64,000 bases of DNA from Candidatus Gottesmanbacteria bacterium. Lineage in GTDB: Bacteria; Patescibacteriota; Microgenomatia; UBA10105; UBA927. Every line of letters starts with the position of its first letter. Position 1 is the first letter of the stretch. The stretch is taken from positions 104,392 through 168,391 of the forward strand of contig CAWEKC010000005.1 in NCBI GenBank assembly GCA_963809665.1, read 5' to 3'. This document shows, in pieces, positions 14,922-40,938 of this stretch. The translations under genes and the position numbers were made by a program. The notes below the pieces were generated by a model. It saw only the letters and a program-made list of their open reading frames with translations, did not search any database and was not told the DNA's origin.

Positions 14922-16028
14922 ATGAACATTGCAATACTTCAGGAAAATCTTTTAAAAGCGCTCACAAGAACGGGGAGAATTGTCGCACAAAAGACCCAAT
15001 TACCCATCATGCAGAATGTGCTTCTTACCACAGATGACTCACGGCTCAGGATCGTTGCCACGAACATGGAGACCACGGAAGTTGTGTTGGCTGGGGCAAA
15101 AGTGGAGAAAGATGGGGGAATCTGCGTTTCTTCGCGTTTGTTGACCGACCTTGTTATGTCCCTTCCTCAGGATACGATTCACATGGTAGTCAAGGAAGGC
15201 TCTCTTCATATCCGGTGCAACGGCGTTAATGCAACCATCCCCGGTGTGGCGGCGTCTGAATTTCCCCCTGTCTCATCCCTGAAAAAGAAAACCGGAATGA
15301 AACTGGATAAAACGACGTTTCTAGACGCTCTCACGGGTGTTTTGTTTGCCGCGGCAACGGACGAGGGGAGGCCGCTTCTCACAGGCGTAAAGATTACCAC
15401 CCAGGAGGGGACAGCACTGTTTGCGGCAACGGACGGATACCGCCTGTCCATGAAAAAAATAACATCGGGGAAATTCGGTGACCTTAATTTCGTCATACCC
15501 GCACGCGCCCTTTCAGAGGTCGTGAAAGTGAGCCAGGAAGAAAAGGACGTGACGGCCGTAGAAATGATAGAGACGCAGGAAGGGCAGCTGGTGTTTAGCG
15601 TGGGGGATACGCAGGTTCATACCCGCCCGATTGCCGGTGAGTATCCCAATATCGAAAAAATCGTTCCCACGCGGCACAATACACGCGTGTTGGTTGATAA
15701 AACAAGCTTACTACGCGCGGTAAAGTCCGCGTCCATATTTGCCAGGGACAACGCGAACATTCTCCGTCTCCATATTGAAAACCAAAAAATGATCGTGTCT
15801 GCCAACACGCCGCAGGTTGGGGAAAACCACGTGGAGGTGGAAGCCAAGGTGGACGGCGACGGGGGAGACATTGCCTTTAACAGCAGGTTTCTGCTGGAGT
15901 TTCTCAACGGGTTTGCCGGTGAAGAGCTTTTATTTGAAATGACGGGATCTCTTAATTCAGGAGTGTTCCGGCCCGTGAAGGACGATTCCTATCTTCACAT
16001 CATCATGCCGGTGAGAGTTCAGAGTTGA
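14922..16028 (+). CDS. dnaN: DNA polymerase III beta sliding clamp
   Basis: MNIAILQENLLKALTRTGRIVAQKTQLPIMQNVLL... has three-domain clamp architecture and a length of 368 aa. Confidence 0.93.
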   Translation: MNIAILQENLLKALTRTGRIVAQKTQLPIMQNVLLTTDDSRLRIVATNMETTEVVLAGAKVEKDGGICVSSRLLTDLVMSLPQDTIHMVVKEGSLHIRCNGVNATIPGVAASEFPPVSSLKKKTGMKLDKTTFLDALTGVLFAAATDEGRPLLTGVKITTQEGTALFAATDGYRLSMKKITSGKFGDLNFVIPARALSEVVKVSQEEKDVTAVEMIETQEGQLVFSVGDTQVHTRPIAGEYPNIEKIVPTRHNTRVLVDKTSLLRAVKSASIFARDNANILRLHIENQKMIVSANTPQVGENHVEVEAKVDGDGGDIAFNSRFLLEFLNGFAGEELLFEMTGSLNSGVFRPVKDDSYLHIIMPVRVQS

Positions 16029-17014
16029 CCATTTCCTGCCGGTACCAGCCACAGAAACAGCGTTGCGTTTTGAACGGCGCCGGTCACTGTTTTTCCCGTA
16101 CCGGTCATATAGAGGGCGGGCAGTAATAGATTCTTCTGCGGCGCATACACGATCGCACTGTCTTCAATAACAAAGCTTGAAAAATCAGGGACCACTCCCT
16201 GTTCGGGCGTTTGAGGATTGTGTGTATCAAGAAGCGTGCCCCTCCCCGCAGTAAGGCTGCCAAGAACCTCGTCGCGTGTTAATAGCGGCGTTGCGGTTCC
16301 CGTCTGAAACGATGCGGGCGGCGGAATAATATTTGCGGAACGGATGATGCCTCCGCTGTCGGCGATGACGGAGACGGGAGAGATACTTAAGTCGGCAGTC
16401 AATAGCGGGTAAGAAGCCACAATATAGGAATAAAAATAATTCTTAAATGATGCCGGCGGGGGAGTATCTATAACAAGGAGCCCGTCAAACGGGCCGTTGG
16501 TAGTTCCCGCGGCTTTAATGCTGAGATTTTGCGTCGGAGGGATGACCGCTATCAAAAACTGTTGGACTGCGGCCTCCGGCGCGATCGGGCTCAGAGGCTT
16601 GGAACTTTTTACCTGGCGGAAGGTGATGGACATTGCGCCGTTTGTTTGTGTGACCGTAAGAGCTGCATCATTCGGCCGCGACCAGGTTTTGGTATACGAG
16701 CCTCCGCGGACAAGCGTGACGGGGGTTGGTTCCAGGCCAAGGGCGGGGGCGGCTTTTACCGCCGTTTGTTCAATTGACGAAAGACCTGGGGGCTGAAACG
16801 TATACGTTGGAAGCGATGTGGGGATTGAAGGCGGCATGGTAAACGAGAACGAAACCTTCGGCGGCTGGGGGAATATACCGGTCGGGCCCGGAGCGGCAAG
16901 TGTCGGAGACGGGGACGGGCCGGCAGGAGATGACGGTTGATGTACGGTCAAAACGATGGCCACTGCGACTACAACAATAAATATGGCCCCCACAATCAAC
17001 AATATTTTATTCAT
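16019..17014 (-). CDS. membrane-anchored Pro-rich hypothetical protein, last gene of the T4SS-like gene run
   Basis: TM anchor MNKILLIVGAIFIVVVAVAIVLTV followed by a Pro-rich extracellular region. Confidence 0.45.
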   Translation of the reverse strand: MNKILLIVGAIFIVVVAVAIVLTVHQPSSPAGPSPSPTLAAPGPTGIFPQPPKVSFSFTMPPSIPTSLPTYTFQPPGLSSIEQTAVKAAPALGLEPTPVTLVRGGSYTKTWSRPNDAALTVTQTNGAMSITFRQVKSSKPLSPIAPEAAVQQFLIAVIPPTQNLSIKAAGTTNGPFDGLLVIDTPPPASFKNYFYSYIVASYPLLTADLSISPVSVIADSGGIIRSANIIPPPASFQTGTATPLLTRDEVLGSLTAGRGTLLDTHNPQTPEQGVVPDFSSFVIEDSAIVYAPQKNLLLPALYMTGTGKTVTGAVQNATLFLWLVPAGNGQL

Positions 17015-17017
17015 ACG

Positions 17018-19246
17018 TTATGACCCCGCCTTAACAGGGGTTGACGGGCACGGCTTTGTACATCCCGCAGTTGTCACACATCCGCTAATCGCCTCCGGCG
17101 AAAGCGCGGAATCTCCCGTGGGCACGAAATCCAGAACATTGCCCCCCGACAGTACGCCAAAGTGCAGATGGGCACCACTGGAGTTGCCTGTCTGATCCAT
17201 CCACCCAAGCTGTGCGTTTGCGTTAACGTGTTGCCCCGCCTGAACACCCAGCGTGCTCTCCAGGTGCGCAAAAATGAGTGTATACCCATCGTCCGTTTTT
17301 AGAATAACATGATTGCCGTAGCCTGCATATGAGGGGCTTCCGCCGCACGTGTCTCCCAGGTGCCCGGAATTGGTTACGCAGCCGGCGTAAGCCTCAACAA
17401 CGGTTCCCGCCCTCGGCGTATAGACGGGGCCGCCGGAAAAACTGGCAATATCAATGCCGTTTGCCGCAGATCCCGACGAATGAGACGTGCTTACGGAACA
17501 AAATACTGCGGTATTAGGGCCTTGGGTTATATAGCCGCTGGTGGGCCAGCGGCAATCACCCGTACAGGCAATAAAACTACACAAGGGATCGTCAGGCGTC
17601 AGTTGGCAATTAACAGTCGGACCGCCCGTCATGCCGCCCCCCGCGTTGGTTGCAATAGACGTGTCAACCATGGATTGGTTGAACGAGGGCGTGTTTATCA
17701 AGGGAAACAGCGGGAGAAAAAAAACAGCTACAATTCCCACCATAGCAACAAGAATCAAATTGTCTTCAGGGTTTTTGCTGTTGCCCATGAACAGCAAGCT
17801 TTTGAGGATGGCGGCGCCCTTCCGGAGCAGCCCCTTGGCAAAATCCGATGCGATCATTGCAAGCGTGGCGATTCCACCCGTACTTGCTCCCGCCACAGCC
17901 TCAGCGCCCACCTTCATTGCTGTGCTGACAGCTGCTTTTGTCGCAGCCTCTTTAACACCCGCCTTAATCGCTTTCTTCATGACATAATTGGTGCCCATAC
18001 GGAGAAGCTGCTGGCCATAACCAAGCGCGATATTGCCGTAGTGGGAAACGCTGACCACCGTGTAACTCAATGGGGTGGTGATCCGGTAGGTTTCCATGTA
18101 TGTAATGACGTTTACGATCGGCGGTCCGCGGAAAACCGTTGTGGCGACATCGGATACAATTGCCGTAAATCTGGATGTAATTTTTAGTGCAGCACCCTGA
18201 TCACCCATCATGCGGTTTGCATCGGTCCTGAGCCTGGTAAACCACGCAGAGTTGACAAAATTTGTTCCCCACCTGTCCGTCATTGTCGCCAAAACATTCG
18301 GAGGGAGGGTTTCGGGATGATTGACGATAGTGTCCAGCGGTTTCAGCAGTATTTTATTAATGATGGTCCCTTTTTCTGCCGTCGGTACGACAGCGTCAAG
18401 TATTCCCGCGGCACCTTTTTGAAAATTATTTGTTGCAAGCGCGGAGAATGATGGCGCCCCCGGAAATGTGCCGATGGATGCGGAGAGAACCTTTGCGGCA
18501 TCCGTGACTTCGGCCGCGCGGGGCACAAACACTTTTACGTCACGGTCGGGTTGCTCAGAAGCAAACGACGTGAGCGCATGGAAAAAGAGCTCTTTTTCTT
18601 CCGGTGGTCCAGGGCGCTGGATCGCGGCGACGGCGATTTCCCTGATCCGTTCCGGCGTCACAGGTGTGCCCTGTGCCTCCTGCGCTTGCAAGGTCGACTT
18701 CTTACTACCAATAAAAATATCCAAGCTTTCAGCTTGATCCCCACTGTCCCACACATCACCCCAACCCGGTACCGACTCGAGGGGCGCGCCCTGAATTTCC
18801 TGCGGCGCTGGAGCTTGTGGAGAAGTTTGCTCAGGGTACGCACCAGAACCTCCCGCAATTGTTTCAGAAATAGTTACGTTTGATTTTTTTGCGTTTTCTA
18901 CTAACGCCCTGACGAATTTTTTTGACGCGGTAGCCGCATTGACACGCTGCGCTTTTGCGTCGGCAAATTCCCTATCAAACTCCTCAACCAGCTCATTCAA
19001 TTTTGCTTCTTCAATGTTGTTGGGAAGAAGTGCTGCCGCCTGAGCGCCCTGCTCACCCGCAGCCCCCGTTGTTTCAAAATAGCGTAAGAACGCCTCGGTT
19101 GGCCGTTTGGGAAACGGCCACGACGTGAACGGATTTGCCCCCGGGTATTTATTGAAAAACCCCTCGAGCGTTTCCGGATCTTCCTGGAGGTTTAGCAAAA
19201 TCCCGAGCGCCCTCTGTGTTTCCTGTGATGACGCAAATTCATCCAT
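17018..19246 (-). CDS. large protein with a C-terminal M23 (LytM-type) metallopeptidase domain and internal TM segments; putative cell-wall-remodelling component of a T4SS-like apparatus
   Basis: C-terminus ...GNHVILKTDDGYTLIFAHLESTLGVQAGQHVNANAQLGWMDQTGNSSGAHLHFGV carries the HxxxD / HxH M23 signature; it lies immediately downstream of virB4. Confidence 0.7.
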   Translation of the reverse strand: MDEFASSQETQRALGILLNLQEDPETLEGFFNKYPGANPFTSWPFPKRPTEAFLRYFETTGAAGEQGAQAAALLPNNIEEAKLNELVEEFDREFADAKAQRVNAATASKKFVRALVENAKKSNVTISETIAGGSGAYPEQTSPQAPAPQEIQGAPLESVPGWGDVWDSGDQAESLDIFIGSKKSTLQAQEAQGTPVTPERIREIAVAAIQRPGPPEEKELFFHALTSFASEQPDRDVKVFVPRAAEVTDAAKVLSASIGTFPGAPSFSALATNNFQKGAAGILDAVVPTAEKGTIINKILLKPLDTIVNHPETLPPNVLATMTDRWGTNFVNSAWFTRLRTDANRMMGDQGAALKITSRFTAIVSDVATTVFRGPPIVNVITYMETYRITTPLSYTVVSVSHYGNIALGYGQQLLRMGTNYVMKKAIKAGVKEAATKAAVSTAMKVGAEAVAGASTGGIATLAMIASDFAKGLLRKGAAILKSLLFMGNSKNPEDNLILVAMVGIVAVFFLPLFPLINTPSFNQSMVDTSIATNAGGGMTGGPTVNCQLTPDDPLCSFIACTGDCRWPTSGYITQGPNTAVFCSVSTSHSSGSAANGIDIASFSGGPVYTPRAGTVVEAYAGCVTNSGHLGDTCGGSPSYAGYGNHVILKTDDGYTLIFAHLESTLGVQAGQHVNANAQLGWMDQTGNSSGAHLHFGVLSGGNVLDFVPTGDSALSPEAISGCVTTAGCTKPCPSTPVKAGS

Positions 19247-19250
19247 AGCG

Positions 19251-21299
19251 TTACACCTTTTCTACGGTAAATGTCGGCCGGGCGCTCTTATCCTCTTCGG
19301 TTATCATCATTGCCTGCCCGCCATCGCTACGCTCCCCGGCCGCCTCGCCTGGTTTGGCTGGCGGGCTGGCAGGCGTTAGCGGGCGGGGTTTTTGTACGCT
19401 TGCTTTGTTCTCTGCCAATTCCTGCGGTTTGGTGGTGGCAAGCGCGTGCTCTTCGGGGCTTGATATGACGCGGATGGCCGCGTGAGCCGGACCGGCAAAA
19501 AACAAGCCCTCGCCGATGTCGGCAGAGAGAAGCAGGTGTTGTTCTCCCTCGGACAAATAAAACACCTGCGCCACCTTATCAATGGCGGCGGACGATTGTT
19601 TGAGAAGTATCTGGACACTGCTGTTCTGGATGATGGATTTGCCCAGGTCAACGGACAAAAAGTCCTCGACGTCCTGGGTAATGGTCGTGAGCCCCAGATA
19701 ATATTTACGCGCACGTTTGGCGATGGAATTCAAAAATTGCCCCGAGTCCGGATATTTCATCATATACCACGCCTCGTCAACGATAAGGATCCGGCGCTTA
19801 ATGTCCCTGCGGATTTTCGTCCAGATATAATCAAGGATGAGGTACATGGCGATAGGCCGCAGCTCGTCTTCCAGATCCCGTATCGAAAATACCGTCAGTT
19901 GGTTACGTATTTCTACGTTGGTCTGCCGGTCAAAGATGCCGACCAGACTTCCTTTAACAAATTTTTCTATACGGTCCGCAAGGCCCCGGGCCGCAGGATC
20001 TTCCATGCCGATAAGAGCTTTATATAAATCTTCCATAAGCGGCGGCTCTTTCGTTTGTGTGGCGGGGTCAGGGGTAATTCCTTTTTGTTTATAGGTAAGG
20101 ATGAGCGCGCGGTCCAGAATGGCGTCTTCCGTGGGGGTGAGTTTTCCCATAACCACGCGGAAAAACCCGTGCAGGGATAATATTTTCTGGTTCAGCTCGC
20201 TTTCTTCCTCTTCTCCCTTGGTTTGGGTGAAGAGCGAGAGGTCAAACGGGTTAATTTTTGTCGTTGATCCGAAATGAAACCGGATGTATTCGCCCCCGAG
20301 CGCGTGGGAGAGCGATTCATATTCGGATTCCGGATCTATGACAATCACTTCCGTGTCAAACATAAGGCTCCGCATGATTTCCAGTTTCACCATGTAGCTT
20401 TTCCCGCTCCCGGACTTCCCGAACACGACGGTATTGGCGTTTTCCATCGTAAACCGGTCAAAGATAACCAGGCTATCATTGTGTTCATTAATACCATAGA
20501 GAATTCCTTCGTTGGCGGTGAGCTCCGATGTGGTAAAGGGGAATGTGGTCGCGAGCGACGTGGTGTCCATATTGCGTGTGATAACGAGTTGGTCCCGCCC
20601 CATGGGAAGCGTGGCTTTAAACCCTTCTTCCATCTGCAGAATTGCGCGTTTGGTAATAATAAGAAGCGACGAAAGCGTTGCCTCCACCTGTTTTGTGGTC
20701 TTGTTGAGGTCTTCAAGATTTTTTGCGGGTATCGTGATATACAGGGCAAACTGGAAAAAGCGCTGGGCGCCCTTGGCCAGTTCCTGCTGGAGGGCAACCG
20801 CGTCCTCGAGGGCGACCTGGACCGAGGGCTCCACAACCCTCCCGCGCTTCATGTCTGACTGAATGGTTGCCTCCATTTCCCCGACCCTGCGCTTGAGGTT
20901 TTCCAGAACCTCCTCGCTTTTCGTAGGGTACACATACATGGCAATGTCCAGCGTGTGGTTGAACGATATAAGCGGCTCCAGCCAGTTTGCGGACACAAAC
21001 CGCGGGTACCCGGCGACAAACAGTGTACGGAAATACCTGTCGCCGATTTTTATCGTATCAAAATCCACTTCAATCGCCGGCGGGGCAATGAGATCTTTCA
21101 CGGTTAACGGCCCGCCTCGCGTCGACGGTGCGTCTTCGCGAGTCGAGGCGGGCACGGGATTGACGAATTTTTTGACTGCTGATTGAACGCTCGATACATC
21201 CATATGGTTACGTTCCCACCGCCTTCTCAATATTGGTGGGGTTGACAATCGGCGCGCCCTGGTTATAAATTTCATAGAACAGGCGCACAAGCTGCTCAT
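19251..21299 (-). CDS. virB4: VirB4/TrbE/CagE-family type IV secretion ATPase
   Basis: Walker A VVFGKSGSGKSYMV, DPESEY, Walker B RRILIVDEAWYMM and ARKYYLGLTTITQ; 682 aa with a Pro-rich C-terminal tail. Confidence 0.85.
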   Translation of the reverse strand: MSSLCACSMKFITRARRLSTPPILRRRWERNHMDVSSVQSAVKKFVNPVPASTREDAPSTRGGPLTVKDLIAPPAIEVDFDTIKIGDRYFRTLFVAGYPRFVSANWLEPLISFNHTLDIAMYVYPTKSEEVLENLKRRVGEMEATIQSDMKRGRVVEPSVQVALEDAVALQQELAKGAQRFFQFALYITIPAKNLEDLNKTTKQVEATLSSLLIITKRAILQMEEGFKATLPMGRDQLVITRNMDTTSLATTFPFTTSELTANEGILYGINEHNDSLVIFDRFTMENANTVVFGKSGSGKSYMVKLEIMRSLMFDTEVIVIDPESEYESLSHALGGEYIRFHFGSTTKINPFDLSLFTQTKGEEEESELNQKILSLHGFFRVVMGKLTPTEDAILDRALILTYKQKGITPDPATQTKEPPLMEDLYKALIGMEDPAARGLADRIEKFVKGSLVGIFDRQTNVEIRNQLTVFSIRDLEDELRPIAMYLILDYIWTKIRRDIKRRILIVDEAWYMMKYPDSGQFLNSIAKRARKYYLGLTTITQDVEDFLSVDLGKSIIQNSSVQILLKQSSAAIDKVAQVFYLSEGEQHLLLSADIGEGLFFAGPAHAAIRVISSPEEHALATTKPQELAENKASVQKPRPLTPASPPAKPGEAAGERSDGGQAMMITEEDKSARPTFTVEKV

Positions 21300-21906
21300 T
21301 GGTTAATTGTTTCGCCGCCAGGCCGATGCGGTTCAGAAGCCGGATGATCTGATCTCCTTTCGGCGCCAGGACGATAAGCGCCCGTTCAAAAATATAGGGT
21401 CTCGGGTACGGGAGGCCCCGTTTTTTTGACCCGCCCAAAAGTACGTTAGCGCTCACGCCCAGCTCCAGATATGAGAAGGGTACGACGATGTAAAATTTCT
21501 TATCCAGAACATCTTTTTCCTTAACGGTTGCTGCGACAAACAGGCGGTATCCGTGCATCGCTGCGGCAAGCTTCGGATTTTTCTGTATTTTTTCGCGGTC
21601 TTCCAGCGTCTGCAGATATGCCGTCACGTCTTTGTGTTGGGTGCGGATAAGAATTTCAATCGGAAACGACAGGGAGTTGAGGAGCCCCGCATACGCATAA
21701 ATAATGGCATCCTGTTCTTTTTCGGACAACAATCCGAAATTGACGGCGGTCGCCGATACGACCATGGAACACGAGCCGTCTGTATACATAACAATCCCGT
21801 GGTCGATAGTTTCTATTTCTGTGAATAGTTGTGTGGATGAGCGGATGGGCACGATTGAATCCGGCATACGATTACTGTGTTGTTGTCCCGAACAATTCTT
21901 TCTCAA
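21208..21906 (-). CDS. hypothetical protein in the T4SS-like cluster; its 5' end overlaps virB4 by ~90 nt
   Basis: 232-aa ORF with no recognised motif; the true start may be an internal Met. Confidence 0.4.
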   Translation of the reverse strand: MRKNCSGQQHSNRMPDSIVPIRSSTQLFTEIETIDHGIVMYTDGSCSMVVSATAVNFGLLSEKEQDAIIYAYAGLLNSLSFPIEILIRTQHKDVTAYLQTLEDREKIQKNPKLAAAMHGYRLFVAATVKEKDVLDKKFYIVVPFSYLELGVSANVLLGGSKKRGLPYPRPYIFERALIVLAPKGDQIIRLLNRIGLAAKQLTNEQLVRLFYEIYNQGAPIVNPTNIEKAVGT

Positions 21907-23122
21907 GTTTTGCTCGTGTTATTTCTTTTTCTGTTTTTGCAAAAATTTCAAGCGCGGGTACGATCGATCCGTTGAGCGTGATTTGCGCCCGATCAAAGGT
22001 AAAGCGCAGGCGCGGATCCTCTACTTCTACAAAATACGTGCCATTGGGAAGCTGGGTGGATGCCGCAAATTGCCCGAGACGGTTTGTTTTGAGGGCCCGC
22101 AGCGGCATACCCTCTTTGTCTTTCACCGTCACGAGGACACCGGGTAATAAATTTTTATCTTTATCCTTGACGATCCCCGTGACGATATTGGGGAACGTGG
22201 TAAGCCGCGGAAGACCCACTTTTGCCGCCCGTCCGGGACCAATGACTTGGATGGTGGGCATAGCGGGTGTGGAAGGCGTTTGCGTCGTAGTCGTCGTTGT
22301 GGGCTCAATTTTCGGGGCGCTGCTTTGCGCTCGCAGATGTGCCATTTCCGTCATCATTTTTTCCTGTTCGGCCAAGAGTTCGGTCAATTGCGTCTGCAGT
22401 TCCGCTACACGAGATTCCGCAGCGTTTTTACTTTCCAACTCCGCCGTGAGCTTTTTAAGTTTTTCTTCAAGGACCGATTCTTTGAGCTGGGTATCCGCAA
22501 GCTCCCGTGCGACGCTTGGGGCGGGTCTCACAATCGGGGGAGGCGAAAAATCCATCTGACGCGCCCGTATAGCCGCCTGCATGGCAACAGGAGGTGCCTT
22601 TTTGGGTTTGGGCGTCCAAAAGTCGGAAAGAATGTCAAACAGGCTTCGCTTGGGGGCAGCAACCGTAATGACCTCCTGGGACGTGGGAGGCGGTACGCTG
22701 AAGGAGGGAGCAGGAATAAAAATATTTTGCAGAATATCTCCGCGGCGCGTCTGGGGCTCGGCAGCCCGCGGCGGGACAACCACCGCCCTACCGGCCGGCA
22801 GGTTTGATTGAGGTTGTGGTTGAGCCGGAGGTGAAACCTGTTTTTTCCATACATACTGCGTCGGGTTATAAATACTCCTGATAAACGAAAGAACCCACAC
22901 GTCCATAGGACGCTCTTCAACCGGTACAAATGCCAGCCCGAATCCCAGAATCGCAGAAAATACTGCCAGCGGCACGGTAAAAATAAATGGCAGCGGTAGT
23001 TTGTATATGATGTAGGCGACGACTGCCCCGCCCACAAGATACCCGAATTGTTTCAAAGTCATATCGCCGATCAGGCGGAATTGAAACGTGGTGACATTTT
23101 GCGGTATCGGATGCTGTTCCAT
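21872..23122 (-). CDS. membrane protein with a VirB3/PrgI-like N-terminal TM hairpin, a central coiled coil, a Thr-rich linker and a C-terminal carboxypeptidase-regulatory-like beta-sandwich domain
   Basis: MTLKQFGYLVGGAVVAYIIYKLPLPFIFTVPLAVFSAILGFGLAFVPVEERPMDVWVLSFIRSIY forms the TM hairpin; coiled coil LKESVLEEKLKKLTAELESKNAAESRVAELQTQL; C-terminus GVLVTVKDKEGMPL...GQFAAS...NGTYFVEV. Confidence 0.45.
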   Translation of the reverse strand: MEQHPIPQNVTTFQFRLIGDMTLKQFGYLVGGAVVAYIIYKLPLPFIFTVPLAVFSAILGFGLAFVPVEERPMDVWVLSFIRSIYNPTQYVWKKQVSPPAQPQPQSNLPAGRAVVVPPRAAEPQTRRGDILQNIFIPAPSFSVPPPTSQEVITVAAPKRSLFDILSDFWTPKPKKAPPVAMQAAIRARQMDFSPPPIVRPAPSVARELADTQLKESVLEEKLKKLTAELESKNAAESRVAELQTQLTELLAEQEKMMTEMAHLRAQSSAPKIEPTTTTTTQTPSTPAMPTIQVIGPGRAAKVGLPRLTTFPNIVTGIVKDKDKNLLPGVLVTVKDKEGMPLRALKTNRLGQFAASTQLPNGTYFVEVEDPRLRFTFDRAQITLNGSIVPALEIFAKTEKEITRAKLEKELFGTTTQ

Positions 23123-23227
23123 AGATTGAATGCAAACATTCCCCGATTGACGTCGAGGGGATCATTTTTATTTTACGGGTGTTTTTTTTACTGCGCAATA
23201 GCACAAAGCGCATCAGGACCGTGAAAA

Positions 23228-23256
23228 CTTAAAAATTTTCCGTGAAAATTTTTAAG
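23228..23256. promoter_or_regulatory. perfect 13-bp inverted repeat in the divergent intergenic region between the T4SS-like cluster and nadD
   Basis: cttaaaaattttc-cgt-gaaaatttttaag; the motif CGTGAAAA occurs twice. Confidence 0.4.
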
Positions 23257-23300
23257 CCCGAGCTTGCCGAGGGATCTACCACCTATGGTACAATTGTCTC

Positions 23301-24668: not shown

Positions 24669-27600
24669 GTGGTATCTATGGCAGAAGCGGAAACAAAATC
24701 CGAAACGAATGTCAGCAAAGTCATCGCAAATATTTTAAAGGCGGCGCGCGAACAGTCGAAACAGCCGAAACCGGAAGAGGTTGCCAAGATTGTACACCGT
24801 ATATATCCGGAAAAAAAAGCGGCTCCCGACGCGAAACAAGCCCGCACCGACCGCATTATTGAAAATGCCAAACATGTGGTCGTTGAAGCAAAAATCCAAG
24901 GTGTACATGTATCCACGGGGTTACACGAGTGGGTTGGCCGAAACAAGCTTCCCATATTAGACAAAGACCCCTCACAAGCGTTCAGAATTGCCAAAGCGGA
25001 TCTTTCTGTTGCCATAAAAGCGTCCGATTTAGCTGAAGACCACTGGGTTGTACGTGCAGCATCCCGGGTAAAAAACGCAGAATCAGCAGAAGCGCTTGCA
25101 ATTATCGCGCTTGCCCCCGAAGACGTGCGAGAGAATCCCAATTTTATGTTCCAGACTGCGGCGCAACTTGCGGGCTCTAATCTTGATCCCGAAACCCAGG
25201 TAACAACCAAAGCGTTTGTTGCGGAACTGAAAACCCTGCGGGGGGTTGACGGATTTGAGATGAGCGACCGCCAGTTGTCACAGGCACTGACGGAGCAGGG
25301 GCTAGGGGCGATGCCCGCGCCATCACCGGATTTTGACCCCGCACTATTTTCAACTTTACCCAATGAGGCACAGGATGTATTCCGCGCGCTTAATTCACAG
25401 TTATCAGGTGCAGCAACAGAAGTGGAAAAATTTGAAATTCTTGATTCTTTTTCTGACCAAATCCACGCAATTGATACCAAAGGGTTTAATCAATCTCAAC
25501 GTGAGGTTTTGTCTCGGTTGCTAGTTATAAAAAATAGTATAGAAAGAGATTTAAAGTTTAAAATTTCTCCCCGTATATCCGTGGATAAAGATTGGTTTAG
25601 GGATAATGACCTGCCCATTCCGAAGTCAAAGAATTTTACGTTTGAAACACGCCTGAGTAAAGAGGAAATTAAAGCCATGTGTGCCAAGGCGGACGAAGAT
25701 GGCTTTGATGGTTTTGACAGGGCATACGAACTTTTATCAGACCGCATTTTTACCAGTGGAAGCGAGGCACATCAACCGGATATTACGGACTCCTATGAAT
25801 ATAAGGAGATAGAAAATCTTCTCCGGTATGTGCACGGGGAAGAGAGTGCTATTGTGAATGCAACCAGGGAACGATGGGAAAACGATTACAGGAGAAACGT
25901 TGTCGCAACCCGTACTATTACTGGGGGTGCAAATGAAAAAGAACTCGTGGAAAGTTTACCAAGCGCCATCGCCTCGAACACCCTTAATTATGAGGCAAGC
26001 ATTAAATTTGCTCCCGAGGCCGTTGCCGCGGAAGAGCAGACGATCAGAGAACTAGCAGCAGAGCAGGCATTTAAATGTGAGAAAGACACGCGATATCTTA
26101 AGGAACTTATTCCCGATCCCGATCCGCATCATATAGGAGAACATATAAGTCGGGAAGAAGCGTGGCGCCGCAATCCAGCAGATTTTCATGGGAATGAGTA
26201 TATTCGGACAGAAGATGCAATGCGTGCAGCACGCGGGAGCATTGTTCATGACGAATGGTTTGTTCCGAACTCGCCGAAATTCGCCAGACTAATTGCCGTA
26301 ACTAAAGCCATGACGGATGAAATTGAGGATCCCGTCAATCCGATAACTGAAGCAGCTGCTCTAGTAAAATATAATGATAATGCAAACCACGAGTTGGAAA
26401 ACCTCTGGAAACTGGTGACCCTGGAAAAACATCCACCCCCAGGCGGGTTGTACAACCCCAAATACCTTAACGCAATCAAGGGATTTTCTCCGCTTGAGAT
26501 TCGTACACATAAACAACTCGAATCGTTTGTAAAGCTGAAATTTCTTCAGCAGGGGAGAACGTGGAATGAAGAGGTAGACAATATTAAGTTACGGCGTGCA
26601 ATGTTTTCCGCCCGGCGCTATATGGTGGGCAGCAAACGGCTGTTTTCTCTGGTTGGGCATCTTTCCAACATGCCGGGGCTCGAAATAGAGGCGGGAGCTG
26701 CAGACGTGATGCCCGAGACCCTCGAATACGTCATGCGGACCGAAGTACCCGAGCGCTTCGTGTTTGCGCGCTTTGGTATAGGAAAGGAAGTTGGCATCCG
26801 GATCATGTCTGTAGAACAGGAAGAGTTGTGTGCATTGCGGGGTGTGACGCTAGATAAAAACGAAAGACTTGTACCGATATTAAATAATAGTAAGAGTGCA
26901 AAGGAAGAATCAATTCCGAAGCGGCGGTACAGGACAGTACTCCAAAAAGCGAAAGAGAAATTCGGACTCAGATATACAACGCTAGCCACAGGAACACTGT
27001 TGGAATCAACGAGCCCGTTTGACTACAGTACGTGGAGGGCGGAAGAGGGAATCTGGCGGGTGCTGCAGGAAAAATTTGGGGAAAACGCACGACATATGGC
27101 ATATGGCACCCAGTTGAAGCTGCTCGGAACATATGAAGGTAGAATTCCAGAAACTCGAAAAGAAGTCGAAGCAATAAAAAATTATTTTGAGAGAAGAAGG
27201 GTATTAACCGAAATGACCCACAGAACGCCATCGTTTATTTTTCAGCTTATCGGTAAAGATCTGGATACGAGTTTAGAGAATCTGCGTACGACGGGCGCGG
27301 TACACATCGATGTTTCACCAGGAAGCACAGAAGGAAAGAAATTTTTCTCAATTTTAGGTTTGGCAGAGCGCAGGGTAACTACAGAGCGAAGCGCACCTCC
27401 GGGCCATAACTTTTTTGAGCGTGGGATATTTAACTTGGGTACCCCCACCGATTTTAATGAGGTATTTGATGATACGCTTTTTCATGCAGTCGGTATTACG
27501 GCTCGCGAACAAATAGACGCGCTTAAAGTTGATTATCTTAAAATCATCCAGACAGCGCAGCATGTCTTTAATCCGCGACCGGAAGAGGGGTATCTGGAGC

Positions 27601-28403
27601 AGTTTGCTCAGCGCGGCATGCCTATCACGCTCACCATGTCCGACTTCGACCTTGCGGATGCGGACTTTCAACGCATAGGCGCGTCGGGCCAACGGCGGAC
27701 CGACCAAGGCGACGCCATGTCAAGACTTGAGGCACGGAGCGCTCTGATGACCATACTAAACGACCCTGATGTTTCCCTTCCGGATAACCCAGAGAAGACA
27801 TTTATTCCCGTACTTAAGAAGCTTATGGGAGATATAAACAGTTATAAAGATGGATATTTTGCAGAAAAGCGATCTGCCATCATGCTAGATGCGGTATTAA
27901 GCCAGAATGTTGCAAAGGATTTTTACCGGGGCATAATTCAAGCAGTTCCGTTCTTGCCGGGGTTAATTCGCAATATTGTTGCACAGGACGCGCGGAAGCC
28001 GTTGGTCCGGGCGTTATTATGGCCCGCAAAGCAATTAGCCATGGGGTATGCAGACCTGAGCGGGCAATCCGAGTTACGTGAATTATTACAGTCGAATCCG
28101 GAAGAGTGGCCAAAAATATTCGGTCAGGAATTCATTTCGGAAGCTGCAGCGGTAAAGGGATTTCACGGTAATGCGCTTAAGGCGCTGGGGACAGAAAGAT
28201 TTATCCAGCAAATAGAGAAGTCGGGATTATTCACCCATCATGAGTTTCTTCACAATCTGAAGGATAAATATAAAACAAGGTTTCAGTTCAAGTTTGCCGA
28301 ATTCGGTATGCGGTATTGGTGGGTACCCTGGGCCGCAGCCCTCGCCGTGGGAATAATGATTGCGATGAAAGAGCAGGGGCTAGATTCGGACGGGCATAAA
28401 TAA
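24669..28403 (+). CDS. giant 1244-aa hypothetical protein with one predicted C-terminal TM helix (tail-anchored) and no recognisable catalytic motifs
   Basis: An uninterrupted ORF with balanced composition; the C-terminus RYWWVPWAAALAVGIMIAMKEQ is hydrophobic; it is convergent with the VirB6-like gene. Confidence 0.55.
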   Translation: MVSMAEAETKSETNVSKVIANILKAAREQSKQPKPEEVAKIVHRIYPEKKAAPDAKQARTDRIIENAKHVVVEAKIQGVHVSTGLHEWVGRNKLPILDKDPSQAFRIAKADLSVAIKASDLAEDHWVVRAASRVKNAESAEALAIIALAPEDVRENPNFMFQTAAQLAGSNLDPETQVTTKAFVAELKTLRGVDGFEMSDRQLSQALTEQGLGAMPAPSPDFDPALFSTLPNEAQDVFRALNSQLSGAATEVEKFEILDSFSDQIHAIDTKGFNQSQREVLSRLLVIKNSIERDLKFKISPRISVDKDWFRDNDLPIPKSKNFTFETRLSKEEIKAMCAKADEDGFDGFDRAYELLSDRIFTSGSEAHQPDITDSYEYKEIENLLRYVHGEESAIVNATRERWENDYRRNVVATRTITGGANEKELVESLPSAIASNTLNYEASIKFAPEAVAAEEQTIRELAAEQAFKCEKDTRYLKELIPDPDPHHIGEHISREEAWRRNPADFHGNEYIRTEDAMRAARGSIVHDEWFVPNSPKFARLIAVTKAMTDEIEDPVNPITEAAALVKYNDNANHELENLWKLVTLEKHPPPGGLYNPKYLNAIKGFSPLEIRTHKQLESFVKLKFLQQGRTWNEEVDNIKLRRAMFSARRYMVGSKRLFSLVGHLSNMPGLEIEAGAADVMPETLEYVMRTEVPERFVFARFGIGKEVGIRIMSVEQEELCALRGVTLDKNERLVPILNNSKSAKEESIPKRRYRTVLQKAKEKFGLRYTTLATGTLLESTSPFDYSTWRAEEGIWRVLQEKFGENARHMAYGTQLKLLGTYEGRIPETRKEVEAIKNYFERRRVLTEMTHRTPSFIFQLIGKDLDTSLENLRTTGAVHIDVSPGSTEGKKFFSILGLAERRVTTERSAPPGHNFFERGIFNLGTPTDFNEVFDDTLFHAVGITAREQIDALKVDYLKIIQTAQHVFNPRPEEGYLEQFAQRGMPITLTMSDFDLADADFQRIGASGQRRTDQGDAMSRLEARSALMTILNDPDVSLPDNPEKTFIPVLKKLMGDINSYKDGYFAEKRSAIMLDAVLSQNVAKDFYRGIIQAVPFLPGLIRNIVAQDARKPLVRALLWPAKQLAMGYADLSGQSELRELLQSNPEEWPKIFGQEFISEAAAVKGFHGNALKALGTERFIQQIEKSGLFTHHEFLHNLKDKYKTRFQFKFAEFGMRYWWVPWAAALAVGIMIAMKEQGLDSDGHK

Positions 28404-28407
28404 TAGT

Positions 28408-29820
28408 CTATCCTTCTTCTGCGGGAGGCGGTGGGGGATTGCCTTTGCCAGCCTCAATAGCATTATGAAGATCTCTATTACTTTGTAGTGTTTGTTTTTG
28501 AATTTTGTGGCTGGATATCATGCTTCCGATTTGAACTGCCTGCATGGCAATACCGCTTGCAGCACCCAGTCCTCCGCCCGTTCCGCCAAGAAGCGATTTA
28601 GTTTTAAGTGCCTGCTTGATGGAATTGGCCATACCCGGAATAGTGAGAAGTATTCCCAGACCGATAACTCCGATCCACCCCGAAGATCCTCCATTAGCGA
28701 GGAGCGGCGGGGTCCAGAGTTTGGTTGCACCCTGATCAAAATTGGCTAATATTGTCCCGACCATAAGCATCGCAGCGGTAACGGGGAATACGGCAATATT
28801 GGAAATTAAATTTTTGAACCACGACGAGAAGCCCGTACCGCCGGGGAATGCCTCGGTGAGAATTTGCAGCGGACCGATGAGCACGCTGATAAGAATTTGT
28901 ATATACGCGCCTACTAGCATAAATAATATACGAATCCACGCAATGACTAGTACAAGCGATACGATAATTGAAATGAGTGCACCGATGACCGGGGCGAGCG
29001 CACCCTCCGCGGCACCGGTAGCGCCTGCAGTAATGCCGCCGGTGAGAAGATCTGTAATGTTATTGACAGCAGCAAATCCCCCCCCGAACACCGCACTAAA
29101 GAGATTCCAGAATCCTCCGTTCACGTATGTTGATCCCGTTGTTGGCGCTAGTGCGCCGTTACTGACGGGAATCAACAGTGATGCGATGAGCGCGATCATC
29201 AAATACATGAGGTCAATCATAAATCCGACAATCGCATAAGAAAACGTAATCAGAAGAAGGGTAACGACGATTTTCGGTAGCGCATTCTGGACCGTCACAA
29301 CGGTCTTCGGATCGATTTTCTTCCGGAACATAACCATAAAACCAATAACAACCATCACGACCGCAAGCAGGGCATAGGCAATATTACGGAATCCCTTCCA
29401 GAGAGGAAGAAGAACGGAGAGACCGCTGAACCCGATTCCCTGCGCATTCACCTGACGCGGCATGAATCCGAGCGTTTGTCCGGTATCCCGTATCCACAGA
29501 GCCAGATCCGCAGGGGGATTGTTATACATGGCTACTGCCACGTTTTGCATTGAAGCAATTGCGCTCTTACCGTAATAGAATGCGCTTGCAGGGTTTGAGC
29601 TGCAGCCTGTAGCCATGCACGAGAATGTGTTCATGTAGAGCACCTGGGTATTTACGGTATACACTTCTTTGCTCATTTGTCCATTTTGAGATTTTTGGTC
29701 TACAACCGCGCCGAATTCTTCTGCGCTGGGCGCCGGATTAATCGCTTGTGCGTGGGCTGCCGGCACAAAAATCCAGCCAGTGAGAATGAGAACGAGGAAT
29801 ACGAGCAGCGTACGCTTCAT
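28408..29820 (-). CDS. VirB6/TrbL-like polytopic membrane protein with a signal peptide and a Pro-rich C-terminus
   Basis: Signal peptide MKRTLLVFLVLILTGWIFVPAAHAQA, a ~130-aa periplasmic segment, then at least six TM helices; it sits immediately upstream of the pilin array. Confidence 0.5.
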   Translation of the reverse strand: MKRTLLVFLVLILTGWIFVPAAHAQAINPAPSAEEFGAVVDQKSQNGQMSKEVYTVNTQVLYMNTFSCMATGCSSNPASAFYYGKSAIASMQNVAVAMYNNPPADLALWIRDTGQTLGFMPRQVNAQGIGFSGLSVLLPLWKGFRNIAYALLAVVMVVIGFMVMFRKKIDPKTVVTVQNALPKIVVTLLLITFSYAIVGFMIDLMYLMIALIASLLIPVSNGALAPTTGSTYVNGGFWNLFSAVFGGGFAAVNNITDLLTGGITAGATGAAEGALAPVIGALISIIVSLVLVIAWIRILFMLVGAYIQILISVLIGPLQILTEAFPGGTGFSSWFKNLISNIAVFPVTAAMLMVGTILANFDQGATKLWTPPLLANGGSSGWIGVIGLGILLTIPGMANSIKQALKTKSLLGGTGGGLGAASGIAMQAVQIGSMISSHKIQKQTLQSNRDLHNAIEAGKGNPPPPPAEEG

Positions 29821-29859
29821 AGATCTATTATGCTAACTATGTTGGTATGAGTCAATGTG

Positions 29860-30180
29860 TTAATAGCTGGGGATGGTAAATTGTGTGACATCTACGCCGG
29901 TAAATAAAGAAATCGTTTTCAGTATCAGGTAGGCAACAACGATAATAACGACGCCGGTGATAGCCGCCGTCAGCGTACCGCGCGCTTTCTCAAGTTTTTT
30001 CTGGTCTCCGCCGGATAACAGGAATCCGTAGCCCCCGACGATGAGCATCACAAATAAAGCAACGCCCACAAGCGCGGTGAGCGCCTGAACAACGCTGATA
30101 AATATCGGCTCAAAACATTTGAATGTTGCCACGTCCTGTGCATTTGGAAGTGTTGAGAAGCATCCTGACCAATCAGCCAT
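29860..30180 (-). CDS. TrbC/VirB2-like pilin family protein, copy 1 of a six-gene tandem array
   Basis: ~100 aa with two hydrophobic helices flanking the conserved motif LLSGGDQKKLEKARGTLTAAITGVVIIVVA. Confidence 0.55.
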   Translation of the reverse strand: MADWSGCFSTLPNAQDVATFKCFEPIFISVVQALTALVGVALFVMLIVGGYGFLLSGGDQKKLEKARGTLTAAITGVVIIVVAYLILKTISLFTGVDVTQFTIPSY

Positions 30181-30231
30181 GCAAACATTATCACGCAGAT
30201 TACGTTAGTAGGCAAGAGACAAGAGAGCGGT

Positions 30232-30561
30232 TTAGAACGGTGACGGTATTGAGATTGATCCGCCGATGATCTGTATGCCCAGGAAGTTCTGGACCAGAAT
30301 CATGACAGCCCATGCGGCGCCGACGATTATAAGTCCGACAATCGCGTGGGTAATTTTATTGCGGGCTGCTTCCATACCGGCTTTGTCGCCGCCGGACGTG
30401 ATCCACTGAATACCGCCCAGGATCAGGAAGAAGAACGCCATGAGTGCCGCAAGGATAAGGAGGAGACCGACGAGCGCACTGATGAGTTTCCCGATATCGC
30501 CGATTTTTACGTTCGTGGGTTGCGGGATAGTAATTTCTGCCTGTGCAAATACCTTTTCCAT
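30232..30561 (-). CDS. TrbC/VirB2-like pilin family protein, array copy 2
   Basis: ...ITSGGDKAGMEAARNKITHAIVGLIIVGAA. Confidence 0.55.
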   Translation of the reverse strand: MEKVFAQAEITIPQPTNVKIGDIGKLISALVGLLLILAALMAFFFLILGGIQWITSGGDKAGMEAARNKITHAIVGLIIVGAAWAVMILVQNFLGIQIIGGSISIPSPF

Positions 30562-30635
30562 AATTCCTCCTTATAACGATCGGTTTCTATTATATCCTTG
30601 CTCTCATTGTTGCGCAACCGTCTTCGGTTTGTCAA

Positions 30636-30992
30636 CTATTGATTAATGCCCGGAATGGTGAGGTGCGTGAGTTCAATACCGAAAAATCGTCCGACCAGCG
30701 TCATGATGGCGAACGCCGCCGCCACAATCACCAGCCCCATGATGGCGTTGGTGATACCATTCCGTGCCTTTTCAAGTGCCTGTTTATCTCCGCCCGCGGT
30801 AATCCATTGAAGGCCGCTGGTAATAAGAGTCATGAACGCGAGTAAGAACGCCGCGATAAACAGCGCACCGATCAGATTGCTGATAAGCAGTCCCAGCGCG
30901 TTGCCGCCCTGGCTTACATCAGGGTGTGAACCGCCCCCTAAAGCGGGAGGCAGGATGGGATTCCGGATTTGCGCAAGAAAATTTATTCTCAT
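30636..30992 (-). CDS. TrbC/VirB2-like pilin family protein, array copy 3
   Basis: ...ITAGGDKQALEKARNGITNAIMGLVIVAAA. Confidence 0.55.
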   Translation of the reverse strand: MRINFLAQIRNPILPPALGGGSHPDVSQGGNALGLLISNLIGALFIAAFLLAFMTLITSGLQWITAGGDKQALEKARNGITNAIMGLVIVAAAFAIMTLVGRFFGIELTHLTIPGINQ

Positions 30993-30995
30993 ACC

Positions 30996-31379
30996 TTATT
31001 TAATTTGTAATTGTTCTATGATTTTTGCGGGATCGCCGACAAGAATGTCATAGCCCAGGAACTGACCGACCGTCGCAATGATGATCCATGCGGCAACGAC
31101 GATAATGAGTCCGAAAAACCCGTTCATGATCCGCTGCCTGGCAGTTGTGAGCTTTTTTACGTCGCCCGCGCTGGAGATCCACTCATATCCGCCGAAGAGG
31201 AGCTGGAATAAAAACCAGATGCTGCCGGCGATCGTCATAAACCCGACGATTGCCGAAATAGCGTTGGTTACCTGGATAAGCGCTCCTGTGCCCGTTGTGG
31301 CGGGGTTTTTGCCGAATGGCCCCAATCCTTCACCCCCGATAGGGCCGAGCGGAACCTGTGTTTGTGCAAGAAGTGTCAT
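30996..31379 (-). CDS. TrbC/VirB2-like pilin family protein, array copy 4
   Basis: ...ISSAGDVKKLTTARQRIMNGFFGLIIVVAA. Confidence 0.5.
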   Translation of the reverse strand: MTLLAQTQVPLGPIGGEGLGPFGKNPATTGTGALIQVTNAISAIVGFMTIAGSIWFLFQLLFGGYEWISSAGDVKKLTTARQRIMNGFFGLIIVVAAWIIIATVGQFLGYDILVGDPAKIIEQLQIK

Positions 31380-31744
31380 GGGTTGGGTGCGTAAATCTTG
31401 GGATTTAAAATAAATCCTGCATCGCCGAATAATAAATATCCGAAGAGAGCGGCAAGAGCAAACGATCCGACGACAAGGATAAGTCCTATCAGCGACTGCC
31501 AGATTTTACTCATGGCTTTTTCAATCGCTTTGGAATCTCCGCCGGCACTCATAAATTGGAATCCCGCTAGGATAAGGTTAAAAAAGGCGAATAATCCCGC
31601 TACTACAAATACAAGCCGGAGAATATTAGTCAAAAACACTGTAAGACCACCGATGCCCCGATATGCTGGAGCAATCTGGTCGTTTGTGACCTTCCCGACA
31701 ATACTGGTTGCGTCCTGTGCGAATATTTTTTCTATACCGATCAT
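31376..31744 (-). CDS. TrbC/VirB2-like pilin family protein, array copy 5
   Basis: ...MSAGGDSKAIEKAMSKIWQSLIGLILVVGS. Confidence 0.5.
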   Translation of the reverse strand: MIGIEKIFAQDATSIVGKVTNDQIAPAYRGIGGLTVFLTNILRLVFVVAGLFAFFNLILAGFQFMSAGGDSKAIEKAMSKIWQSLIGLILVVGSFALAALFGYLLFGDAGFILNPKIYAPNP

Positions 31745-31749
31745 AATTA

Positions 31750-32133
31750 TTACAGTCCGACTATCTGCTTTAACATGGGCGAGCCCGTTATGGTGGCGAT
31801 CACCTGTACGATAAGTACAGACAGTACGACAATAAGAAGTCCTATGACCGCGCCGGTTATCGCATTTTTTCCCTGATTGGTTTGTTTTGCATCACCGCTC
31901 CCTGTTCCCATAATAACGCCGAATCCGCCTATAATCAATAAAACAAAGCTGATAATGCCGGCAAACACGACGGCATTTTTGACGATAAGGGTTACAATTT
32001 GACCAAAATCTGTAAATGTAGCCGCCGGAGCGAAAACGTTAGGGTCACCAATATTTACAGCCATGCATTTAGTGTACGGGAGTGTGATTCCACTGTCAAT
32101 TTGTGCTATAGTTATAGCCTGTGGACGACGCAA
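31750..32133 (-). CDS. TrbC/VirB2-like pilin family protein, array copy 6; probably starts at the internal Met (MAVNIGD, ~32064) rather than overlapping the sigma-factor start
   Basis: ...IMGTGSGDAKQTNQGKNAITGAVIGLLIVVLS. Confidence 0.5.
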   Translation of the reverse strand: MRRPQAITIAQIDSGITLPYTKCMAVNIGDPNVFAPAATFTDFGQIVTLIVKNAVVFAGIISFVLLIIGGFGVIMGTGSGDAKQTNQGKNAITGAVIGLLIVVLSVLIVQVIATITGSPMLKQIVGL

Positions 32134-37165: not shown

Positions 37166-37175
37166 TGGTTTATAT

Positions 37176-40934: not shown

Positions 40935-40938
40935 ACTA

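Follow-up and report, generated by a model that had tools for sequence, protein, structure and literature searches.

A probable Patescibacteria-type type IV secretion operon beside dnaN and dnaA in Candidatus Gottesmanbacteria

Introduction

A type IV secretion system (T4SS) common to the Patescibacteria has been described by Quinonero-Coronel et al. (2025, PMC12102498), with a distinct clade of VirB4 ATPases related to the MPF-FATA type, TrsD as the commonest companion and PrgI/VirB3. According to this survey, VirB2-like pilin arrays are abundant in Microgenomatia and M23 or other peptidases replace VirB1, VirB8 homologues hardly occur outside ABY1, VirB6 is seldom found in Microgenomatia, relaxases are near absent (only 103 Patescibacteria genomes), an adjacent VirD4-like gene is rare (148 of 5713), and in Microgenomatia and Paceibacteria the T4SS lies near dnaA and dnaN (PMC12102498). 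Experimental data come from Southlakia epibionticum, in which the T4SS and its pilins (SEML1_0006-0019) are essential for epibiotic growth, a requirement known only for this organism, and for which protein export or another non-conjugative role has been suggested (Wang et al. 2023, PMC10633639); the peptidase and lysozyme homologues downstream of virB4 are essential there as well (PMC12102498). Here we describe a 64-kb stretch of a Candidatus Gottesmanbacteria (Microgenomatia) contig, hereafter the window, in which five minus-strand genes probably make up the cytoplasmic-membrane and cell-wall half of a chromosomal Patescibacteria-type (MPF-FATA-related) T4SS, encoded in one coupled operon that ends beside dnaN and dnaA, close to the origin of replication.

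Among plasmid systems, the trs genes of pGO1 and pSK41 and the prg genes of pCF10 follow the order VirB3-like protein (TrsC/PrgI), TrsD, VirB4 (TrsE/PrgJ), wall hydrolase (TrsG/PrgK) and small N-anchored protein, which is also the order of the window's operon, and PrgK likewise has a LytM/M23-type domain. These systems differ from the one in the window in that they are plasmid-borne, have a relaxase and a coupling protein, and rely on SLT/CHAP hydrolases and NTF2-like VirB8 homologues; moreover, VirB2-like pilins are not known from them.

The operon is real, intact and strongly conserved, and its kind is already known, since the architecture including TrsD, the absence of relaxases and the position at dnaA/dnaN have been published (PMC12102498; PMC10633639). 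With the Patescibacteria T4SS it shares the MPF-FATA-type VirB4, the TrsD-like protein, PrgI/VirB3, a VirB2-like pilin array and perhaps VirB6, as well as an M23 or other peptidase in place of VirB1, the lack of a relaxase and the place next to dnaA and dnaN. It differs in its PrgI fusion protein, which carries a coiled coil and a CarboxypepD_reg beta-sandwich, and in the YycI/PepSY-like fold predicted at the position where VirB8 would be expected. Moreover, the VirD4-like gene that is rare in the survey is normally adjacent in the Gottesmanbacteria clade, and has been deleted in the lineage of the window. While Southlakia provides experiments, the Gottesmanbacteria system is known here from its genes. 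The reduced, Gram-positive-style T4SS without visible DNA-transfer functions that an initial annotation had outlined was borne out gene by gene, in agreement with both publications (PMC12102498; PMC10633639).

Organization and Conservation of the Operon

The five open reading frames (ORFs) run in the same direction from 23122 down to 16019, and all were found where the initial annotation had put them (Table 1). For the second and third genes, internal ATG codons are the likely true starts because the resulting lengths (219 and 650 aa) fit hundreds of orthologues. With these starts the four junctions read TAA-N4-ATG three times and TAA-N3-ATG once, and such spacings of 3-4 nt therefore indicate a single translationally coupled operon. 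The stop codon of its last gene overlaps the dnaN stop by 10 nt, with dnaA just past dnaN, nadD and nadE stand upstream in divergent orientation, and the GC content is even across the operon and its surroundings. The 569-aa and 1017-aa proteins encoded beyond dnaA, for which homologues were not found in the related loci, were excluded from the system.

Table 1. Coordinates of the operon, its upstream element and further features of the window.
Feature	Position	Strand	Remarks
prgI-like ORF	21872-23122	-	416 aa
trsD-like ORF as listed	21208-21906	-	232 aa from TTG start
trsD-like gene, likely true start ATG 21867	21208-21867	-	219 aa
virB4 ORF as listed	19251-21299	-	682 aa
virB4, likely true start ATG 21203	19251-21203	-	650 aa
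M23 protein gene	17018-19246	-	742 aa
Anchored-protein gene	16019-17014	-	331 aa
Conserved 34-nt element GTTTTCACGGTCCTGATGCGCTTTGTGCTATTGC	23195-23228	-	73-106 nt upstream of prgI
Promoter-like TTGCGC-17 nt-TAAAAT	about 23171-23199	-	34-nt element runs into it
Second TTTTCACG copy	23241-23248	-	just upstream of 34-nt element
VirB6-like polytopic membrane protein	28408-29820	-	470 aa; signal peptide and at least 5 hydrophobic segments (hydropathy scan)
VirB2-like pilin gene (tandem of six)	29860-30180	-	PF18895 T4SS_pilin
VirB2-like pilin gene (tandem of six)	30232-30561	-	PF18895 T4SS_pilin
VirB2-like pilin gene (tandem of six)	30636-30992	-	PF18895 T4SS_pilin
VirB2-like pilin gene (tandem of six)	30996-31379	-	PF18895 T4SS_pilin
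VirB2-like pilin gene (tandem of six)	31376-31744	-	PF18895 T4SS_pilin
VirB2-like pilin gene (tandem of six)	31750-32133	-	PF18895 T4SS_pilin
Seventh pilin gene	40584-40934	-	116 aa, PF18895 41.5 bits
Cys-rich pilin-domain protein	40939-42120	-	393 aa, PF18895 25.6 bits
1244-aa protein gene	24669-28403	+	between VirB6-like gene and nadE
Mevalonate operon	33490-40580	+	complete-looking
Split thiolase	35723-36863	+	Thiolase_N 35723-36379, Thiolase_C_1 36282-36863
ORF without family match	59511-60197		
Group I intron	60236-60434	+	Rfam RF00028, 65 bits
ORF without family match	60515-61252		

The best matches of the proteins are named Candidatus Gottesmanbacteria, which places the lineage in Microgenomatia and not in Saccharibacteria, with whose T4SS loci the initial annotation had proposed a comparison. 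Comparison was made with 82 related loci, 80 from a scan of species-representative genomes and two fetched earlier. The 80 loci belong to Gottesman-, Woese-, Curtiss-, Levy-, Davies- and Beckwithbacteria, and their VirB4 proteins are 57-89% identical to that of the window. The order PrgI-TrsD-VirB4 is kept in all related loci where the contig allows it to be seen, and dnaN and dnaA follow convergently in about 60 of the 82, spanning several candidate phyla of the class. Over 21 Gottesmanbacteria genomes, the median global identity to the window's proteins is 76% for VirB4, 69% for DnaA, 63% for TrsD, 55% for DnaN and 49% for PrgI, and falls to 24% for both the M23 protein and the anchored 331-aa protein. 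These medians fit an essential cytoplasmic core with fast-evolving, envelope-exposed parts. In most of the other Microgenomatia loci inspected, virB4 is followed by a large bitopic protein and then by at least one small N-anchored protein, none of them detectably similar to those of the window, and in a few loci (L045, L046 and L054) virB4 abuts dnaN directly.

In contrast to the identities within Microgenomatia, plasmid VirB4 proteins are at most 37% identical to that of the window, the closest being CD1110-family proteins of Bacillota and Actinomycetota (31-37%). On the Paenibacillus brasilensis plasmid NZ_CP045297.1, whose layout is that of a classical conjugative system, the order is PrgI, VirB4 (32% identity), a hydrolase of the NlpC/P60 type and a small protein; this plasmid differs in its full-length VirB4 (786 aa), the lack of a separate TrsD, a VirD4-like CD1115 protein, an FtsK-like protein, a MOBP relaxase and the absence of annotated pilins. 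The best VirB4 match in the plasmid collection (621 aa, 37% identity, 1e-126) lies on an 898-kb replicon of Pontibacillus sp. ALD_SL1 (Bacillota; NZ_CP062975.1, 351-361 kb; L084:2474-12027), where the order of the window recurs, with a pair of VirB2-like pilins ahead of a large membrane protein, followed by a PrgI-like protein of 116 aa, a TrsD-like one (3e-48), the short VirB4 and, last, a large M23 protein. Apart from its Bacillota host, this locus differs in that the replicon is predicted to be non-mobilizable, TrsD has an N-terminal membrane helix and PrgI is without the C-terminal extension; no homologue of the N-terminal module of the 742-aa protein or of the 331-aa protein was detected in it. 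The combination of pilins, TrsD, split VirB4 and M23 protein is therefore not confined to Patescibacteria.

The Split VirB4 and the PrgI Fusion

The VirB4 ATPase, already recognised as such in the initial annotation, matches the NCBIfam model conju_CD1110 (NF045971) with 403 bits (cut-off 325; 1.9e-120) over model positions 184-730 of 752. Among solved structures it is most closely related to 4ag5, the C-terminal domain of VirB4 (1e-47), and to TrwK (4e-8), and its Walker A (GKSGSGKS) and Walker B (ILIVDE) motifs are intact. A grouping with FtsK or HerA, which had been considered as a counter-indication, was not seen: CD1110 is the best family, and no match to FtsK or HerA was found among the solved structures of the PDB. 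The 650-aa protein is, in addition, without the first ~180 residues of full-length VirB4 proteins of the CD1110 type.

The preceding gene accounts for this missing part. Its 219-aa product, which had been listed as a 232-aa hypothetical protein, matches model positions 104-233 of VirB4_plasma (6e-6), positions 11-71 of CD1110 and TrsD/TraD (0.017), all in NCBIfam. Its orthologues carry the PF26593 'TraC-like' label in precomputed annotations; the label comes from these homologues, a Pfam search with the window's own protein having given no match. A TrsD profile run against PDB sequences returned low-complexity matches only, from the Q/P-rich tails of distant homologues. Judged from these sequence matches, gene 2 encodes a TrsD/TraC-like, stand-alone homologue of the N-terminal part of VirB4, and genes 2 and 3 together would amount to one full-length VirB4, because the former matches the N-terminal part and the latter only CD1110 positions 184-730. 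The protein is soluble, has 2568 homologues and is ~219 aa long in Gottesmanbacteria. Its domain is always N-terminal among the representatives listed (1635 matches in cluster representatives at 50% identity), and one natural TrsD-VirB4 fusion (P0166, 787 aa) occurs among 150 cluster representatives listed. Splitting of VirB4 is thus the rule and no assembly error.

A frameshifted or pseudogene VirB4 had also been considered as an explanation of the small ORF, and was rejected in view of a conserved stand-alone protein with so many homologues. As a separate observation, many distant TrsD-like homologues (P0122-P0263) extend at the C-terminus into tails 200-500 residues long in which Q, P, T, S and N abound, and the Gottesmanbacteria proteins are tail-free.

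The first gene of the operon encodes the protein with a PrgI/VirB3-like hairpin, a coiled coil and a C-terminal beta-sandwich that the initial annotation had described, and family searches agree with each end of it: residues 5-90 match Pfam PrgI (PF12666) with 37.4 bits (cut-off 27), and residues 314-370 a CarboxypepD_reg-like beta-sandwich with 28.4 bits. From its N-terminus the protein comprises a two-helix membrane hairpin (~26-66), a Pro/Gln-rich linker, a coiled coil (~205-270), a Thr-rich linker and the CarboxypepD_reg-type domain. Hairpin and C-terminal domain share one ORF in 69 of 76 Microgenomatia loci, with a highly variable linker length, and all 40 of the sampled orthologous C-domains match PF13620. 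This domain is the best conserved portion of the protein, reaching up to 97% identity in relatives. The fusion of PrgI to a beta-sandwich is class-wide and no peculiarity of the window.

The M23 Protein and the Anchored Protein

As the initial annotation had it, the 742-aa protein ends in an M23 peptidase (Peptidase_M23, 69.5 bits, residues 595-706). The protein is bitopic, with a ~495-aa N-terminal region without signal peptide, a single transmembrane helix at 497-515 by hydropathy and then the extracytoplasmic M23 domain. AlphaFold2 gave no usable fold for its N-terminal 535 aa (pLDDT 42.7). This N-terminal module is what 13 homologues keep, and in it a motif around the membrane helix hardly varies. 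The C-terminal enzyme domain has been swapped among them: most have M23, one has Peptidase_C39_2 and three have no domain that could be recognised. The domain-swapped homologues (P0296, P0297, P0299 and P0300) retain the ~535-aa module together with the membrane helix. Among the M23 motifs, D, FAHL and HLH are present, and the first His of HxxxD is replaced by Ala (GSAANGIDIA as against GRMHNGIDIA in 9gy1), which makes the catalytic activity uncertain because this His is the first zinc ligand. The homologues have a conserved His 9-12 residues upstream. A hydrolase immediately after virB4 is also found in monoderm relatives, namely NlpC/P60 in the Paenibacillus plasmid and M23 in Pontibacillus.

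The last protein of the operon, which had been described as membrane-anchored and Pro-rich, indeed has one N-terminal transmembrane helix (from residue 4 to residue 22 or 24) followed by a disordered Pro-rich linker and three helix-plus-antiparallel-sheet units. A VirB8- or TcpC-like fold, for which a check had been proposed, is not what the structural model suggests: the model is confident, is not NTF2-like and matches YycI, YycH, PepSY-type propeptides and YpeB, and VirB8, TcpC, TraM and PrgL are not among its top 60 matches. Foldseek of the same model against the PDB yielded noise only, with TM-scores up to 0.14, a profile of the protein against PDB sequences gave nothing significant, and no match to YycI, YycH or PepSY was found at the sequence level. 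The model thus assigns the protein a YycI/YycH/PepSY-like fold, with tandem helix-plus-antiparallel-sheet domains behind an N-terminal anchor. Proteins of the YycI, YycH, PepSY and YpeB types are partners or regulators of wall enzymes and proteases. YycI and YycH regulate wall homeostasis (PMC7355866). In their case the association is with WalK, whereas the operon of the window has no linked WalK-type kinase and the neighbour is an M23 protein in a T4SS operon; PepSY-type domains occur in YpeB and in the propeptides of M4/M36 proteases, and the likeness of the 331-aa protein to them is one of fold.

Both genes travel together. In the loci where they are found they are always paired, and iterated profiles recover the N-terminal module in 29 loci, in each of which it places the big protein directly after virB4, and the 331-aa protein in 25, the order being always virB4, big protein, anchored protein and dnaN.

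Loss of the Adjacent Coupling-Protein Gene and a Conserved Upstream Element

A search among window ORFs of at least 150 aa found no coupling protein, relaxase or VirB11, nor is there an integrase in the 64 kb. The initial annotation had reported the absence of the first three, which holds for the window; as regards the coupling protein, this absence is specific to the lineage. Thus, 32 related loci, which are most of the Gottesmanbacteria, have a VirD4-like gene directly upstream of prgI and divergent from it, whose ~729-aa product matches TrwB_AAD_bind (33 bits), TraG-D_C (29 bits) and the TraD and CD1115 coupling-protein models (~1e-9). At that site neither the window nor its two closest relatives (L003 and L004, VirB4 88-89% identical) have the gene, and where L005 has 2243 nt holding the VirD4-like gene (L005:5667-7909; also L001:6299-8488), 73 nt stand in the window (within 23123-23300). 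Moreover, tblastn with a related coupling protein across the window returned no remnant even at E=10. The VirD4-like gene has been cleanly deleted at its ancestral site in this lineage.

The same intergenic region contains a 34-nt element, GTTTTCACGGTCCTGATGCGCTTTGTGCTATTGC, which occurs only once in the window, where chance alone would give 0 matches, and which reaches a conservation of 80% or more when 37 upstream regions are aligned. It recurs in 30 related Gottesmanbacteria loci, in which the number of mismatches does not exceed 7 and is mostly 0-3. There it is invariably on the operon strand and in most cases 31-74 nt ahead of the prgI ATG, in the midst of flanking intergenic sequence that cannot be aligned. 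In the window the element runs into a promoter-like sequence, and a copy of its first nine bases lies just upstream (the TTTTCACG copy of Table 1), inverted in most loci and direct in the window and L004. We infer that the element is a candidate promoter and operator of the operon.

Pilins and the VirB6-Like Gene

The initial annotation had complemented the operon with a VirB6-plus-pilin locus. This locus (28408-32133) lies 5 kb upstream of the operon, beyond nadD, nadE and the gene of a 1244-aa protein, and its pilin part is clear: the six tandem ORFs match PF18895 with E-values from 2.4e-9 to 1.7e-5, five of them above the 26.6-bit cut-off and one at 25.3 bits. The VirB6 part is weakly indicated. 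No family match was found for the window's 470-aa protein itself, its profile gave nothing significant against PDB sequences, and three of 14 orthologues weakly match PF04610 TrbL/VirB6 (best 0.0015). The assignment is supported by genomic linkage to the pilins and to virB4: in 28 loci an orthologue of this protein stands upstream of virB4, at a distance of ~10 kb, and in L041, L043 and L044 the orthologues are directly downstream of virB4, with a pilin gene.

Two further genes with the pilin domain lie at 40584-42120, and we infer that they belong to the same machine as the operon. One encodes the seventh pilin, of 116 aa. The adjoining one encodes a 393-aa secreted protein with repeated Cys-rich modules and a C-terminal VirB2-like pilin domain, which may be a pilin with a large displayed head.

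With respect to the 1244-aa protein between the VirB6-like gene and nadE, no family match was found for it. A hydrophobic C-terminal stretch is visible in its sequence, below the hydropathy threshold used, and nine related loci have weak homologues (21-30% identity) at the corresponding position. The protein may be connected to the secretion system.

Proposed Mechanism and Alternative Explanations

In the mechanism that we favour, the intact VirB4 would attach to the membrane by way of the PrgI hairpin and the TrsD-like protein, the latter supplying as a separate chain the N-terminal VirB4 segment that is absent from the 650-aa ATPase. VirB4 and the VirB6-like protein would then pull VirB2-like pilins out of the membrane and build a pilus or channel by polymerising them, while the bitopic M23 protein would open the peptidoglycan locally, a role that elsewhere falls to VirB1, PrgK or TrsG. 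The co-evolving, anchored YycI/PepSY-like protein would hold this hydrolase, or regulate and gate it. By analogy with Southlakia, the machine would serve host-cell contact and exchange and not conjugation; the window has no relaxase, and the neighbouring VirD4-like gene has been deleted.

Several points weigh against this proposal. Pilus, secretion and host contact are read from the genes, the genetic evidence being that of Southlakia, and the assignment of the 470-aa protein to VirB6 is weak. Having lost the first zinc-ligand His, the M23 domain may bind rather than cut, and the role of the 331-aa protein as a regulator of the hydrolase would follow from fold likeness and gene pairing, with a Foldseek result that does not support it. 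The genes of these two proteins are detectable only in the Gottesmanbacteria clade, and in some Microgenomatia virB4 abuts dnaN. As judged from its sequence, the C-terminal beta-sandwich of PrgI could sit on either side of the membrane, and a coupling protein could be encoded elsewhere in the genome, beyond the 64-kb window.

The main competing explanation is a machine working inwards, that is, a coupling-protein-independent import of host nucleic acids or other macromolecules, in the manner of Helicobacter ComB or archaeal Ced, which would feed a cell unable to make nucleotides. We regard it as rather unlikely. The window's VirB4 does match the Ced DNA-import ATPases (CedB 2.1e-13, CedD 1.7e-6), but both matches are far below the cut-offs and reflect a general similarity among VirB4 ATPases, conjugative CD1110 being the best family by far. 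An import function would suit a locus without relaxase that has lost the adjacent coupling-protein gene with no decay of the rest of the operon, and whose core is conserved at a housekeeping level; moreover, a cultivated Patescibacteria parasite is reported to take up host RNA, and its tubular structures have been suggested to be T4SS pili (2026 preprint, 10.64898/2026.06.21.733656). However, the operon has no linked partner specific to ComEC or ComB within the window, and in Southlakia competence uses type IV pili and ComEC, the loss of comEC leaving viability unaffected while the T4SS is still essential (PMC12857230). The direction of transport, besides, is not readable from sequence. A bolder version would make the Microgenomatia T4SS a coupling-protein-independent conduit that draws macromolecules (RNA, DNA) or nutrients from the host, with the PrgI beta-sandwich and the M23/YycI-PepSY-like pair as a lineage-specific module breaching and gating two cell walls. 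This stays a speculative idea of comparably low probability, entertained because the core is constrained like replication genes and the coupling-protein gene was lost with the rest intact.

Synteny, the junctions, the constraint on VirB4 and the position of the hydrolase in monoderm systems render two other explanations less likely still. It is improbable that only the first three genes serve secretion and that the M23 and YycI-like proteins are a co-transcribed pair for wall remodelling or division outside it. The restriction of both genes to the Gottesmanbacteria clade (25-29 loci), the loci L045, L046 and L054, in which virB4 and dnaN are neighbours, a fold that is not VirB8-like and the part of YycI and YycH in wall homeostasis would all agree with such a pair. 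Yet only 3-4 nt separate virB4 from the first of these genes and the two genes from each other, most Microgenomatia loci inspected have a large bitopic and then small N-anchored proteins after virB4 even where sequence similarity is lacking, monoderm T4SS loci as a rule encode a wall hydrolase immediately behind virB4, and the peptidase and lysozyme homologues at that place are essential in Southlakia (PMC12102498). The least probable of all, and by our estimate a very slim chance, is that the operon is an integrated conjugative element, or its remnant, still transferring DNA between cells. Its closest characterised families are indeed conjugative (CD1110 of CTn2-type elements and TrsD of pGO1), monoderm plasmids carry the closest plasmid-borne VirB4 proteins, with 3623 of the best 5000 plasmid records predicted to be conjugative, and most Gottesmanbacteria keep the VirD4-like gene beside the operon. 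Against this stand the fixed chromosomal site beside dnaN and dnaA in about 60 of 82 genomes, a VirB4 that diverges more slowly than DnaA, the lack of integrase, relaxase and coupling protein in the window, a GC content that matches the surroundings and the scarcity of relaxases throughout Patescibacteria (PMC12102498).

Other Features of the Window

Apart from the secretion genes, the window holds a complete-looking mevalonate operon, which encodes HMG-CoA reductase, an HMG-CoA synthase-like protein, thiolase, two GHMP kinases and diphosphomevalonate decarboxylase (Table 1); the gene of undecaprenyl diphosphate synthase comes next. Its thiolase is split into overlapping ORFs in different frames, which could be due to a frameshift or a sequencing error. 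At the low-GC end of the window (0.37-0.39), a group I intron lies between two ORFs without family match, and no ribosomal RNA gene was called nearby.

Concluding Remarks

The T4SS of Patescibacteria is the first shown to be essential to the very bacterium that carries it. The locus described here adds nothing categorical to this picture, its contribution being incremental and consisting of usable handles on the Microgenomatia version of the system. These are the clean loss, in nature, of the coupling-protein gene from the site where it usually lies, with the remaining system strongly constrained; a predicted fold for the protein at the position where a VirB8 homologue has been sought without success; the class-wide fusion of PrgI; and a sharply conserved candidate control element. 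In addition, the Pontibacillus locus, a member of the Bacillota having the same architecture down to the pilins, bears on the origin of the system.

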